Positions 20,858 to 31,945 are shown, counted from the first letter of the stretch. The stretch is DNA of 64,000 bases from Candidatus Omnitrophota bacterium (GCA_050250375.1 JBFWOS010000001.1:27346-91345); one strand, 5' to 3'. Made by a program: numbers and translations. The notes: generated by a model not told the origin, from the sequence alone.

Positions 20858-21024
20858 TGTCTGACTTTTTGGAAGAGGGATTTGTAGGTGGAAGCTAAAT
20901 TGGATTTTAGCATAATAATTTTTTTTCACCTTAAACTTTAAACCTTAAACCCCTCGATTCTACTTTCTTCTCAACTTATTCCTTCTTTCTTCTTACTTCC
21001 TACTTCTTTCTTTTTTCACAGATC
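20858..21024. repeat. leader/uORF repeat family A, copy 1
   Basis: Read on the minus strand: purine-rich tract, GGTTTAAGGTTTAAAGTTTAAGG, then ATG + MLKSNLASTYKSLFQKVRQ... (homologous to the N-terminus of the DUF1016 gene at 33054). Copies at 25950-26112, 30143-30453 and 31665-31945. Confidence 0.8.
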
Positions 21025-21081
21025 TCATTCTACAAGATAAAGTGTTGCATTAGAACCTTGAGGGTTATCTGTCCCCTATCT

Positions 21082-24000
21082 TTACTTTCCTCCTTTAATA
21101 TCATCAATGATCTGCTGGGCTTCTTTTTCTGGCAAACCATACGCCTGTTTGTCCTGCAGTGCATTAAGAATATCCGGTTCCAGTGGGTACAACTGACCCT
21201 TGTTATACAAAATTTCGGCTCCGCCTTTGGGATTGTCTTTATAGTCCAGCTGGGCGCACAGAATAATGGCCCCGGTCGTGGCGTTCATCTTGTCCGGCAT
21301 CACCGTGGCGACGACCGGAATAATATCCTTTGGGTCATAAATGTCTTCGTCACCCTTGTAATGCTGGGCCTCGCAGCAGAACAGGTCGCGGGCCAGATGC
21401 TCCGGTCCCACCACAATATCCGAGTGGATTTTCAAAACCGCCTGGGCCGCGTCGGCGCATGGCTTGTTCATATATTTCTTCACAATCTTGGCTGTGACGG
21501 ACGCCATGTCGATTTCGAACGTCGGTTCGGCACCCGTGGCCTTTTCGATCAATGTCTGGATAGACATTTGCGAAAATTCCTGCTGGGTCCCTGCCAGGAA
21601 ATCTTTTTCCAGCTGTTCCAAATATTCATCGTCACCGTCTCCGTCAAGGGCCGGACCGTAATCCTCCAGGGTTAAAAATTTCGCATTCAGGAAATAGACC
21701 TTGCCGACAACAGGCAGTTCCACCCAACCGTAAGCATGGCCGTGTCCGTCGCTTTGGACCAAAACGTCTACCCCCGCCCCCACCCGGATGGTGATGCCGA
21801 ACGGGCCTTTGATGACAATGGTGCCCGTAAACTGTACCTGTATTTTGCTGGAAGAAAAATAAACATTTATATCCACCCGGATGGTCTTATATATCTGAAA
21901 TTTTATCTGAAAATGAAAAACGTCCGTCTTCAGCGCGAGGGTGGCGGCCCCCCGCACCAGCGGCACCTTATACAACGTGTATGATACTCCTCCGGTGATG
22001 TAAACGCTGACCTTGGCCGAATCCAGAATAAATTTAGTCTGGCTGACGCTCAGGCCGCAAATGGTAAAAGGGGAAATATCGACATTGACGGTAATCCCCG
22101 CCTGATCGATTTTCAACAGATTCACGTCGAAATTAACGCCGAAAATGACCGCGTGCATCCGGAAATACAACCCGTTGGAATAAGGGTTCTGGTCCTGAAA
22201 TTTGCATTTCTGGACGAGCGTCGCGGGGATGGTGGTATCCACCACCACAATGATCATAAAATCCTTCACCCGGATGTTGTCAAACAGGGCCGCCGCGTCA
22301 TTGGACACGTCCGTCTTGATAAAACTGGTAATCAGCTCCGTGAAACTGGTCCCCTTGGCTGGGTCTCCACTGGTGTAACACCCGCAGAATCCTGAAACGG
22401 CCTCGCCGTCCATCACGGCGATCATCATACTGATTTCTTCCGGTTTCGGCGACGACGTCTTTAACTTGATGCTGCCTCCCACCTCGAAATCGAACCCTGC
22501 TTCATCGACCTGCAATTGAACGAAAATATCTTCCAGCACGACATTGGTCTTTGGGATAGGAAAATTAGTGTCCACCTGAAGGTTGGCGATCGTCTTGCCG
22601 GTGGAGGTGATTTCAAAACTGCCGGAAAGTCCCAACACGACGGAGGGGCTGATCTGCAGGGTGCCGCTCTCGATCCCGAACTGGATGCTCCAAAGCTGCG
22701 GGCTGACTTTAAACACGGCGTTTGGATTTTTAATGGAAATCACTTTGGGAACGATGTCAAACGTCTGGACCAGGACCAGGTCCATTTCATACTGGTTATC
22801 GGACGGGTCCAGCAGCAGGCGCGTTAAAAACACGCTGTCGGCGTTTTGTCTGGCCTTCTTTCCCCTCAGCAGATTGGCCAGCTTCTTAAAATCCGTTTTA
22901 TCCAGATCGATTTCCGAGAAAAACAGCAATCCCTTCTGGATCCCGTAACCGGCGGTGTCGATGGGCGCGTCCGGAAACAGCGTCTTGATGTCAAACTGGG
23001 CGGCGGTGACCGACGACACCACCATCCCCGCGTTCTGTACCGTAATGTTCCCCAATGATGCCGGCAGGACCGGGAACAATTTATTCATGTTGACGTTTTG
23101 AAACAGCATACCGGCGATAAATCCCGAACTGCCCGCGTACTTTTCGACCGCCAGGGCGATATTAGTTTTAATCTGTTTGTACGAAACGCCGCAGGTCAGC
23201 AAAAACACAAAATCATCCGCCTTCTTTTGGATCAGGACAGCGGGTTTGTTGACGGAAATAGGGTCCATCCAGGAAGGCGCCGGCCAGGACTGGCCGGCGA
23301 TATCCTTGACGATATCCGGGACCGGGTACGTGCCATCGACTGTGGTGTTCAATTCGAAATCTCCGGCCAGATCGGCGCTGACAAACGTCTGGGACGACAA
23401 AAACCGGAACTGGCCGGACACATCCCCCGACAATGTCTTGGCATCGTTCATGGTACCGACTTCAATGGACAAAAACTCGACGATGATCCCTTTGGGACCG
23501 ACCGGAATCGTAAACCCCTGATTGTTGCCTGCCAACAGCCTCCAGGCGGGCGCGGTGTTGACGTCCTGGGCCTGAAACAGCAACTGGTCAAACGCGGGTA
23601 AAGCCGGCCCTTTGTAAGGCACATGCAAAAGGTCCTGGATCAGGCCCGGTACATTCAGCGATGATCCTTCCTTCAAACTGGCGGCAAACGAAAACGACTG
23701 CCAGTACGTCAACTCCGCCTCAAGCGTTGTCCGGGCCGAGGAACCCACCGTCATGTCCGCCTTAAGCATGCTGCTGGCCTGACACTTTCCGAACGGGTTC
23801 AACAAAGTCAATTGGCCCTGGATCCCGCCGATACTGATCACGCCAGAAATCAAATCCCCCCCGCCGCCGGCCTGCAACAGGAATGTGACAGAAAGAAGCG
23901 ACACCGGACGGACGGAAATGCAAAAATTAAGTCCGGTCAGACTCACCGACAAATTGCTTTGCTGATGCGTCTTGGGCAGCCCCTTGATCAACTCTCCCAT

Positions 24001-24897
24001 GTTGCCGCCGACCCAATCCTGCAGACTGTTCAAATCCAGCGTCAACGGGGCAAAGTGGGACTGGACCTGTATCGTGGGCCGTTTACCGATGTCCATCTGG
24101 CACAAAAACTGCACCGGCGTGCCGGCCGCGCCCAGCTTTGCGGTCACATCAAGGTTTATCGTAAACGACTGATAATCGGTCGTCGGAGAATCCGGTTCCG
24201 GCCCCTTGATCTGGCCGAAACGGCTTTGCAGGGACACCGTTGTCTTCAGATCGATCTTCCCGTTAAAGAAATGCCTGAGATTAATGTCCGGCAGCTGAAA
24301 TTGCAGATTAAACTGAGGGGCTGAGACATCCCCGCTGATATCGCCCGACACCTGCACGGACTTCAGCTCATTGGCAATCACTTGGGTGATATACCCAATC
24401 GTCGGAAACTCAGCCGGGTCCTGGGTCAGCGTGCCGTTGAATTGCGTGCCGGCCGCCACGGACACACCTAGCGCCGCGTCCGTGTAAGCGGCGGTGGCCA
24501 CAGAATAAACGCCGGCGTCTTCAACAAAAAAACAGTCGAAGATGGTGCCTTTCAGGACGGGGTAGTTCTGCGAAAATTTGTATTTCCCCGCGTCTTGCTG
24601 TTTCAGTCTGAACAGGCCGGCCGCCTGCAGTCCGGCCGTATCCGTAAAGAATATCCAGTGGACGCCGCAGGACATCCCTTCCCCAGGCAGACGGGTTTCC
24701 CCTTTAAAATGCAGACAGCGGTCGTCGGCGGTCAAATCACTAACGCCGGTGATCAGCACCTCCCCCGATGGAATAATCCGTTTCAAATTCTCTTCTAACC
24801 CTGCGCATAAATTCAATGACTCCGGCGGCAGACGAAACGTTAAACGGTCCAGGCTGAAAAATTTATCGATTTGTTGTCTGAACTTAAATAAAGTCAT
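21082..24897 (-). CDS. large beta-rich protein of unknown function (1271 aa), second gene of an EEP operon
   Basis: Uninterrupted 3.8 kb ORF. Starts 4 nt after the EEP stop. No N-terminal signal peptide or TM evident. Composition is Thr/Ser/Gly/Val/Gln/Asn-rich and beta-strand-like. Distinct C-terminal ~180-aa alpha/beta region with conserved Cys and His. No family recognised. Confidence 0.65.
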   Translation of the reverse strand: MTLFKFRQQIDKFFSLDRLTFRLPPESLNLCAGLEENLKRIIPSGEVLITGVSDLTADDRCLHFKGETRLPGEGMSCGVHWIFFTDTAGLQAAGLFRLKQQDAGKYKFSQNYPVLKGTIFDCFFVEDAGVYSVATAAYTDAALGVSVAAGTQFNGTLTQDPAEFPTIGYITQVIANELKSVQVSGDISGDVSAPQFNLQFQLPDINLRHFFNGKIDLKTTVSLQSRFGQIKGPEPDSPTTDYQSFTINLDVTAKLGAAGTPVQFLCQMDIGKRPTIQVQSHFAPLTLDLNSLQDWVGGNMGELIKGLPKTHQQSNLSVSLTGLNFCISVRPVSLLSVTFLLQAGGGGDLISGVISIGGIQGQLTLLNPFGKCQASSMLKADMTVGSSARTTLEAELTYWQSFSFAASLKEGSSLNVPGLIQDLLHVPYKGPALPAFDQLLFQAQDVNTAPAWRLLAGNNQGFTIPVGPKGIIVEFLSIEVGTMNDAKTLSGDVSGQFRFLSSQTFVSADLAGDFELNTTVDGTYPVPDIVKDIAGQSWPAPSWMDPISVNKPAVLIQKKADDFVFLLTCGVSYKQIKTNIALAVEKYAGSSGFIAGMLFQNVNMNKLFPVLPASLGNITVQNAGMVVSSVTAAQFDIKTLFPDAPIDTAGYGIQKGLLFFSEIDLDKTDFKKLANLLRGKKARQNADSVFLTRLLLDPSDNQYEMDLVLVQTFDIVPKVISIKNPNAVFKVSPQLWSIQFGIESGTLQISPSVVLGLSGSFEITSTGKTIANLQVDTNFPIPKTNVVLEDIFVQLQVDEAGFDFEVGGSIKLKTSSPKPEEISMMIAVMDGEAVSGFCGCYTSGDPAKGTSFTELITSFIKTDVSNDAAALFDNIRVKDFMIIVVVDTTIPATLVQKCKFQDQNPYSNGLYFRMHAVIFGVNFDVNLLKIDQAGITVNVDISPFTICGLSVSQTKFILDSAKVSVYITGGVSYTLYKVPLVRGAATLALKTDVFHFQIKFQIYKTIRVDINVYFSSSKIQVQFTGTIVIKGPFGITIRVGAGVDVLVQSDGHGHAYGWVELPVVGKVYFLNAKFLTLEDYGPALDGDGDDEYLEQLEKDFLAGTQQEFSQMSIQTLIEKATGAEPTFEIDMASVTAKIVKKYMNKPCADAAQAVLKIHSDIVVGPEHLARDLFCCEAQHYKGDEDIYDPKDIIPVVATVMPDKMNATTGAIILCAQLDYKDNPKGGAEILYNKGQLYPLEPDILNALQDKQAYGLPEKEAQQIIDDIKGGK

Positions 24898-24901
24898 GCG
24901 C

Positions 24902-31576: not shown

Positions 31577-31621
31577 AAAAATTTCCCCTTTCTTTTTTTG
31601 GCGTTGTATGGGGAAGAGCGA

Positions 31622-31650
31622 GTAGGGAACGGTTCAAAACCGTTCCTTAC
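31622..31650. repeat. REP-like palindrome GTAGGGAACGGTTCAAAACCGTTCCTTAC
   Basis: In the 5' leader of the Bro-N gene. Confidence 0.55.
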
Positions 31651-31664
31651 TATAGGGGATGAAT

Positions 31665-31945
31665 ATCTTTATACCATGCATGCGTGTGGGAGTCAATAAA
31701 ACGTTCAATAAGGATCTTTTATAACCGGTTAAATACACTCAATTGCCTGAGTTTTTTAAAAAGGATTTTGTAGGTGGAAGGTAAGTTGGATTTTGGCATA
31801 ATAAATTGTTTATTTTACGTTAAACGTTTAACCTTAAACCCCTCGGTCCTGTTTTTTCTGGATATTTCTTCCTTCTTTCTTCTTACTTCCTATTCTTTTT
31901 TTTCACAGATCCCTGATCCCTAAGATAGGGCGCTGTCCCGTATCT
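31665..31945. repeat. leader/uORF repeat family B, copy 2
   Basis: See 30143-30453. Directly upstream of the Bro-N gene. Confidence 0.8.

Follow-up and report, generated by a model that had tools for sequence, protein, structure and literature searches.

The question raised by this locus is why the same short open reading frame (ORF), preceded by the same upstream tract, should occur in front of four unrelated genes. The locus lies in a stretch of 64,000 nucleotides (nt) from Candidatus Omnitrophota bacterium (GCA_050250375.1 JBFWOS010000001.1:27346-91345), referred to below as the window, within a defence island at 19-53 kb on the minus strand of a Candidatus Omnitrophota metagenome-assembled genome (MAG). 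An earlier description made from the sequence alone (the sequence-only reading) had regarded the repeat as a promoter/leader module with a conserved upstream ORF, and had explained it either by recombination events at a DUF1016 gene's 5' end that swapped downstream cassettes, or by a shared leader that places the downstream genes under one control. Our analysis suggests that each copy is probably a generic intergenic block joined to the first 19 codons of a DUF1016_N–SNase gene that has lost its body, i.e. a gene stub and not a purpose-built leader.

Four minus-strand copies (c1 to c4; Table 1) were recovered by direct-repeat search, alignment and profile search, at the positions given by the sequence-only reading. 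An nhmmer profile built from the four copies matched 31915-31727, 26117-25934, 30414-30215 and 21027-20842, with E-values from 2e-57 to 6.5e-51. In 100 shuffles, no match was obtained with the 23-nt tract of the repeat or with the coding pattern of the 19 shared codons (N19). All copies have the same order of elements, namely purine-rich heptads, a unique 25-nt piece, GGTTTAA-type heptads, an A-rich spacer, the ATG and 19 codons; in the full composite block, a hairpin and GGGATCA-type heptads precede the purine heptads. The genes downstream also proved to be those described earlier: a decayed ORF6N gene after c1, the EEP operon after c2, a KilA-N gene after c3 and a Bro-N gene after c4. The profile search revealed no copy in three other ~21-kb loci of the same genome, including L126 and L128.

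Comparison of the copies showed that there are only two types of stub, type A in c1 and c2 and type B in c3 and c4. The nucleotide identity of N19 is 57/57 within each of these pairs and 46/57 between them. The repeat shared by c3 and c4 covers ~300 nt, from the hairpin to just beyond a promoter-like site, with one indel and six clustered mismatches as the only differences; ~230 nt are identical except for the six mismatches, which are grouped in the heptad tract. The leader of c2 matches that of c3 (92-100% over 65 nt) while its N19 is 100% identical to that of c1, and the copies are therefore mosaics of one another. When c4 31818-31852 is set against c3 30306-30340, the six substitutions fall within ~25 nt of heptad tract and spacer, which suggests either that a patch was converted from another heptad tract or that this stretch is hypermutable.

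The short ORF of the repeat (mini-ORF) consists of MLKSNLASTYKSLFQKVRQ plus 10 residues in c1, of the same 19 residues plus 6 in c2, and of MPKSNLPSTYKILFKKLRQ plus 7 in c3 and c4. Its stop codon lies 6-10 codons past the 19 shared codons, and the total length is 25-29 codons, not 17-27 as first proposed. The 19 residues form the N-terminus of the full-length DUF1016_N + SNase gene at 33054-32029 and of many homologues in Omnitrophota, where this family is abundant; one homologue (P0002) starts with MPKTNLPSTYKTLFQKVKQ and then continues TLILGQQ. In tblastn searches with the homologues P0002 and P0005, residues 1-19 matched all four copies (68-74% identity), and the nucleotide pattern of N19 matched five sites, the four copies and the intact gene, with 0 matches in shuffles. 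These results bear out the proposal that the peptide is the N-terminus of the DUF1016-thermonuclease gene at 33054. Beyond codon 19, tblastn for gene bodies and 3' ends gave no DUF1016 or SNase similarity in any copy or elsewhere in the window, and the exact and codon-degenerate N19 coding patterns gave 0 matches in metagenome and viral scans. When the copies were aligned with the start region at 33054, the coding part was found to be shared with the full-length gene but the upstream leader was not.

In a related contig (L129), ORF6N follows an intact DUF1016–SNase gene. The intergenic DNA and the start of ORF6N in L129 are 94.5% identical to window 20777-20505, just below c1, and the conserved stretch includes ORF6N's own TTGACA-16-TATAAT promoter. 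In addition, the 80 nt after codon 19 of c1 resemble the post-stop sequence of the intact gene at 32029 (0/200 shuffles were as good). Because of the downstream identity and the post-stop-like sequence after codon 19, c1 is the same locus as in L129, i.e. the DUF1016–SNase→ORF6N arrangement minus the gene body. The same gene pair was found in L130.

The other cassettes were also found in relatives. In L133, a DUF1016–SNase gene is followed by the hairpin, the block TTTATTGACC…TATAAAGATATTCATCCCCT and Bro-N, with no stub; L133 is 88% identical to window 31700-30941, and 91% in the promoter block. As this promoter block is present in L133 without a stub, the promoter-like stretch in the 3' portions of c3 and c4 is that of Bro-N itself. 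Bro-N without the stub block is carried by L133-135, and the pair of the EEP gene and its 1271-amino-acid partner is carried by L137-139 at 89% nt identity with no stub on either side. The homology of L137-139 to the window extends from 23 nt before the ATG to within a few bases of the stop codon, and the flanking genes DUF4056, zf_Tbcl_2 and DUF1993 are common to both. L136 contains a DUF1016→KilA-N→Bro-N tandem, and small-gene arrays of this sort are thus normal in these organisms. Since the relatives carry the cassettes without it, none of the four cassettes has the mini-ORF block as a conserved partner.

At 1219-1930 of L133, a Bro-N gene is cut at the equivalent of window 30941 and joined to sequence resembling the last DUF1016–SNase codons and post-stop heptads; this junction is the mirror image of the 5' stubs of the window. 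The DUF1016–SNase genes themselves are mosaic, as seen when 32029-33054 is compared with L124, L129 and L130: the first 20-40 and the last ~60 codons show 75-85% third-position identity and the middle is saturated at 25-35%. Between the window gene and that of L129, third-codon identity falls from 0.80-0.85 at the two ends to 0.25-0.35 in between. This mosaicism implies recombination among alleles or paralogues.

The two near-identical pairs of copies each flank one cassette, c4–[Bro-N + 76-amino-acid ORF]–c3 and c2–[EEP + 1271-amino-acid gene]–c1. A short-read contig (L123) corresponds exactly to the Bro-N cassette plus ~30 nt of the repeat at each end, and confirms the junctions independently. 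The length of the repeat, 180-300 nt, fits homologous rather than site-specific recombination, and homologous recombination between block copies most probably made the pairs. This could have occurred by single-crossover (Campbell-type) insertion of a circular cassette with a block copy, or by unequal crossing-over that duplicated the block and the cassette, followed by deletion. Patchy gene conversion among the copies would have come later, and the stubs would remain as direct repeats able to loop cassettes out or in.

The first explanation of the sequence-only reading, which invoked recombination at a DUF1016 5' end, stood in substance, as the mini-ORFs are true 5' stubs, c1 has an intact orthologue in L129 and the copies are mosaic. 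The swapping of downstream cassettes under one promoter was not borne out: (i) ORF6N is already the neighbour of the intact gene in L129 and has its own promoter, (ii) Bro-N in L133 has its own promoter and no stub, and (iii) the pairs bracket the cassettes and do not head them. We also rejected a model of integration at the 5' end of the gene, with an island that brings a replacement promoter and N-terminus. It predicts an intact gene downstream in the array, but the actual one is upstream and without the leader.

Several points weigh against the interpretation that the copies are gene stubs multiplied by homologous recombination or duplication as cassettes were gained. Both stub types stop at Q19, although their sequences past this codon are unrelated (24-29% identity), and independent simple deletions are not expected to coincide. 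After N19, c1 and c2 continue with generic heptads and c3 and c4 with 44 unrelated nt and then the Bro-N promoter; the similarity of these 44 nt to the DUF1016–SNase 3' end was not significant (p = 0.2-0.9). The purine/GGTTTAA leader is absent from all eight full-length genes examined, no intact parent with this leader was seen, and an intact orthologue was demonstrated for c1 only among the four copies. The copy-number data are limited to the window and the three ~21-kb loci of the same genome, Campbell insertion and unequal crossing-over, and the direction of the events, are indistinguishable from one genome, and the Bro-N promoter site, TATAAA, is without the usual final T. The shared end at codon 19 could be a coincidence, as only two independent junctions are involved, or the two types could be of common descent, with a second event having taken place later at the edge of the heptads.

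Much of the block recurs in other places. The window contains 33 tandem period-7 tracts (for example at 3142-3170, 9774-9806, 18742-18768, 47334-47503 and 52298-52506), with varied heptamers such as GATCCCC, CTGATCA, CAGGGAT, ACCTTAA, TTCTTCT and GTCACAT; 30 of the 33 are outside large ORFs and 3 inside, though large ORFs make up 79% of the DNA. Partial leader-like tracts, with purine heptads and GTTTAAGG heptads, are present on the plus strand at 49217-49262 and 50951-51017. The pattern GTTTAAGG-N6-GTTTAASG was found at no fewer than 120 loci (one genome per species), almost all of them, among the matches listed, in Bacteroidota and allied phyla, and in the listed matches from other phyla the GTTTAAGG tract lies inside longer heptad arrays, often with an inverted copy near by. 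We therefore rejected the GTTTAAGG tract as a specific operator, as it has at least 120 loci elsewhere, mostly in Bacteroidota among the matches listed. The exact GTTTAAGGTTTAAAGTTTAAGG tract likewise occurs at 120 or more loci, in Bacteroidota and other phyla.

The hairpin AAGATACGGGACAGCGCCCTATCTT also occurs alone, mostly at gene ends or just beyond. It has the look of a repetitive extragenic palindromic or terminator-type element, but without a T-run, and in the same genome it is found in L126 (3231-3250, 5148-5175 and 6805-6858), in L128 (20801-20822) and in L127. L126 and L127 were considered as a cassette polymorphism; this was rejected, as the two are 100% identical and differ only in their gene calls. 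The heptad + D6 element recurs like the hairpin, genome-wide or clade-wide, between genes. As the heptads and the hairpin are generic, the four copies can be recognized as one family by the 25-nt piece, the spacer and N19 alone.

The common end point also fits another explanation, that codon 19/20 of DUF1016–SNase genes is a site-specific hot spot, recombined or cleaved by an unseen recombinase or by the nuclease itself, and that the array works as an integron-like platform without attC. Two stub types with N19 diverged by 19% have the same end point and unrelated sequence past it, N19 is 100% identical inside each bracketing pair, and diverged homologues show unusually high third-position conservation in their 5' 20-40 codons. 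L133, moreover, starts within the N19 of a first DUF1016–SNase gene and stops after 162 nt of a second, which is expected for a multi-copy 5'-end repeat. However, Pfam and PADLOC scans of ~40 ORFs, comprising all long ORFs between 15.6 and 58.5 kb, detected no integrase or recombinase domain; the duplicated segments reach 100-250 nt past N19 on both sides; and blocks without N19 bracket other cassettes likewise. The c1/c2 junction abuts generic GGGAACA/GGGATC heptads that are themselves rearrangement sites, as the ORF6N(+) cassette lies in such heptads, and the coincidence rests on n = 2 independent junctions. We consider a hot spot at this codon unlikely. It is very unlikely that codon 19/20 is a genuine site-specific break or recombination point throughout Omnitrophota, perhaps cut by the encoded nuclease, with the 5' end serving as a self-maintained landing pad and integrase-free analogue of the integron platform. 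As the sequence-only reading had noted, all copies have the same orientation and are direct repeats; no recombinase was found in the ORFs scanned, and an invertible shufflon or phase-variable expression site is not supported.

The possibility that the block is a shared regulatory leader, a promoter and 5' leader with a translated mini-ORF that puts four cassettes under one control, was examined at the level of promoters, structure and conservation. The block is sense-oriented upstream of four different genes, N19 is its best-conserved part within each pair, and a weak extended -10-like site (TGCTAAAAT, in c1 and c2) is the only promoter-like content of the block itself. For c2, no separate consensus promoter precedes the EEP gene and the homology to L137 begins only 23 nt before the ATG; the EEP operon, alone of the four, may be transcribed from or through the block. 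In c1, c3 and c4, however, a better promoter candidate lies between the mini-ORF and the gene (20706-20679, 30185-30157 and 31697-31669, respectively), conserved in L129 and L133 without the block. All promoter assignments are consensus matches only. With the best candidate downstream of it, the mini-ORF is not a leader in these three copies, and the downstream genes would mostly use their own predicted promoters.

Further results were also contrary to a leader function. Relatives have Bro-N, EEP + 1271-amino-acid gene and ORF6N (L129, L130) without the block, and the mini-ORF ATG is not preceded by a Shine-Dalgarno sequence, although the downstream genes have one. There was no RNA structure signal in the four copies (fold z = -0.44, 0.32, 0.40 and -1.01), and an Rfam scan of 17-53.5 kb gave only a tRNA-Val and two chance-level matches, with no known leader or riboswitch. 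The heptad tracts occur elsewhere in either orientation, and the tails of the mini-ORFs differ in length and sequence. The position of the promoters, the relatives without the block, the lack of a structure or Rfam signal and the generic nature of the heptads thus do not support a shared leader that controls all four accessory genes, and we regard this explanation as quite unlikely.

A small non-autonomous mobile element, such as a miniature inverted-repeat transposable element (MITE) or an insertion sequence (IS) end with an outward promoter, would account for several dispersed copies whose ends are fairly sharp, with the hairpin on the 5' side and codon 19 on the 3' side. It is highly improbable, since terminal inverted repeats, the feature by which the sequence-only reading would have recognized ordinary IS or MITE termini, were not detected in or near any copy, a target-site duplication was not observed either, the ORFs scanned contained no transposase domain, the copies are confined to one 11-kb stretch with none in the three other loci, and their content is a gene fragment plus generic intergenic elements. 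An artefact of MAG assembly is equally improbable: repeats of 180-300 nt can mislead assemblers and the short-read contig L123 breaks exactly at c4 and c3, but two records (contigs of 359,812 nt and 1,225,656 nt) have the same proteins in the same order, L123 independently supports the junctions c4→Bro-N and 76-amino-acid ORF→c3 hairpin, and the copies differ mutually in specific mosaic ways.

Table 1. Features of the repeat family and of the surrounding defence island, in window coordinates (aa, amino acids).
Feature	Position	Strand	Description
ORF6N locus	20039..20777	-	own TTGACA-16-TATAAT promoter 20706-20679; decayed ORF6N gene 20600-20040
Copy c1	20842..21027	-	leader; N19 stub 20913-20857; then heptads and D6 element 20857-20778
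Cassette A	21082..25911	-	between c2 and c1; EEP-family gene 24902-25888 and 1271-aa gene 21082-24897; 89% identity to L137 over 25911-21088
Copy c2	25934..26117	-	c3-like leader (92-100%); N19 stub 26005-25949 (100% identical to c1); then 12 nt GGGAACA/GGGATC heptads
ORF6N(+) cassette	26119..26765	+	promoter 26127-26155, gene 26207-26725 (PDC-S05), hairpin terminator; inside GGGATCA heptads of the upstream part of c2
c2 hairpin and GGGATCA part	26766-26811	-	split from the rest of c2 by the ORF6N(+) cassette
Hairpin AAGATACGGGACAGCGCCCTATCTT, 25 nt	26786..26810	-	further copies 30430-30454, 31922-31946; degenerate copy 17712-17736
KilA-N gene, 113 aa	29762..30103	-	spans positions 6-96 of the 281-position PDC-S22 profile
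Copy c3	30142..30455	-	block as in c4; N19 stub 30287-30231; second copy of Bro-N promoter block 30188-30142; upstream of truncated KilA-N gene
Cassette B	30457..31653	-	between c4 and c3; Bro-N/DinD-like gene 30707-31576 (PDC-S13, E = 1e-120) and 76-aa ORF 30457-30687
Copy c4	31654..31947	-	hairpin 31946-31922, GGGATCA heptads, purine heptads, unique 25 nt, GGTTAAA/GTTTAA heptads, spacer, N19 stub 31799-31743, 44 nt, Bro-N promoter-like block 31700-31654
Intact DUF1016_N + SNase gene	32029..33054	-	PADLOC PDC-S02-like; family that the stubs derive from
Possible modification-based defence cluster beside type I restriction–modification	33134-41545	-	CARF-like protein, Ser/Thr-kinase + ORC/CDC6-like ATPase (951 aa), nucleoside deoxyribosyltransferase-like, D12 methyltransferase, 428-aa unknown, DndB/DpdB-like
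Type I restriction–modification system hsdR/M/S	41580-46944	-	

The defence island contains a run of small genes with DNA-binding domains (DUF1016_N–SNase, Bro-N, KilA-N, ORF6N and RhuM), which PADLOC classes as defence candidates (PDC-S02, PDC-S13 with E = 1e-120, PDC-S22 and PDC-S05). The cluster at 33134-41545, which as a whole was unmatched by PADLOC, may be a DNA-modification-based defence system. The KilA-N gene is truncated, as it covers only part of the PDC-S22 profile. When compared with L129, the decayed ORF6N gene shows an internal deletion of ~150 nt, and it has an internal duplication (20234-20305 and 20439-20510, 74% identical). A single homologous cluster of the EEP-family gene was found among 5.8 billion proteins (90% identity, three short-read contigs), and its 1271-amino-acid partner had no Pfam or PADLOC match; the two genes (21082-25888, minus strand) look like a rare two-gene unit of unknown function. 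In the middle of the variable array, the opposite strand encodes a tRNA-Val(GAC) (26920-26994, plus strand), and L137 has no tRNA between DUF4056 and the next gene.

Three more pairs of intergenic blocks occur in the window as direct repeats (85-100% identical), at 47311-47506/48140-48317, 50951-51134/52284-52459 and 49167-49214/49795-49842. Inside the second pair, 51036-51134 and 52361-52459 form a narrower pair. These block pairs are unrelated to the four copies, and the units that they bracket (a MORN-repeat segment, a nucleotidyltransferase with a 130-amino-acid partner, and decayed gene fragments) follow the same pattern as c4/c3 and c2/c1. The 524-amino-acid ORF at 47537-49111 (minus strand) consists of a RhuM gene truncated at about residue 266 and fused to a MORN-repeat protein through a heptad-rich intergenic block (…SHVTGHKSHVTCDF…), and is probably a rearrangement product.

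Taken together, the locus gives a sequence-level picture of how a defence island may be remodelled in the uncultivated phylum Omnitrophota. Small defence candidates (DUF1016–SNase, Bro-N/DinD, KilA-N, ORF6N and RhuM) and operons would be acquired, lost and cut short at gene boundaries or in their immediate vicinity, with duplicated intergenic blocks staying behind as direct repeats around the cassettes. The finding also calls for caution in annotation, as conservation of a short ORF and of the tract upstream of it can mark a relic and not a regulator. If the shared truncation point were site-specific, it would represent a new way of cassette capture, which is unlikely on present evidence.

Among known systems, leader-peptide attenuation resembles the locus in having a short ORF upstream of a gene, but in three of the four copies the likely promoter lies between this ORF and the gene, alternative hairpins were not detected, and relatives do not preserve the arrangement. 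Integron cassette arrays also consist of small accessory genes in the same orientation, separated by a recurring repeat. Unlike them, the present array has no attC-type imperfect palindrome and, in the ORFs scanned, no intI; the cassettes have their own promoters and different pairs have different repeat families.

Duplicated gene ends flank inserted islands as att-like repeats after Campbell-type integration. The likeness lies in direct repeats with a gene fragment on either side of an insert, most similar within the flanking pair. The locus differs in having no integrase and no short defined core, and in that the intact gene, which does not share the leader, lies upstream of the rest of the array.

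Intergenic direct repeats of a heptamer (TAACTGA) have been described in Beggiatoaceae, Cyanobacteria and Bacteroidetes (MacGregor 2015, PMC4679880). Like these, the GGTTTAA, GAAAGAA and GGGATCA tracts are 7-nt tandem repeats of unknown role, concentrated between genes and often shortly upstream of start codons; they differ in sequence, in the many kinds present in one genome, in their Omnitrophota host and in being part of duplicated blocks.

By the definition of Matus-Garcia, Nijveen & van Passel (2012, PMC3488235), putative mobile promoters are stretches of 50-100 nt that are at least 80% identical, stand before non-homologous genes of a single genome and show no features of an IS or MITE. 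The four copies come under this operational definition, as N19 is 100% identical in c1/c2 and in c3/c4, the leaders of c2 and c3 are 92-100% identical over 65 nt, and the downstream genes are unrelated. They differ from such promoters in that the repeat holds 19 codons of a dead gene, its promoter activity is putative, three of the four downstream genes have their own promoter, and the copies bracket cassettes. The repeat family, which lies in a defence island prone to recombination, is best filed as a duplicated gene-stub-plus-intergenic block that falls among the putative mobile promoters as operationally defined.

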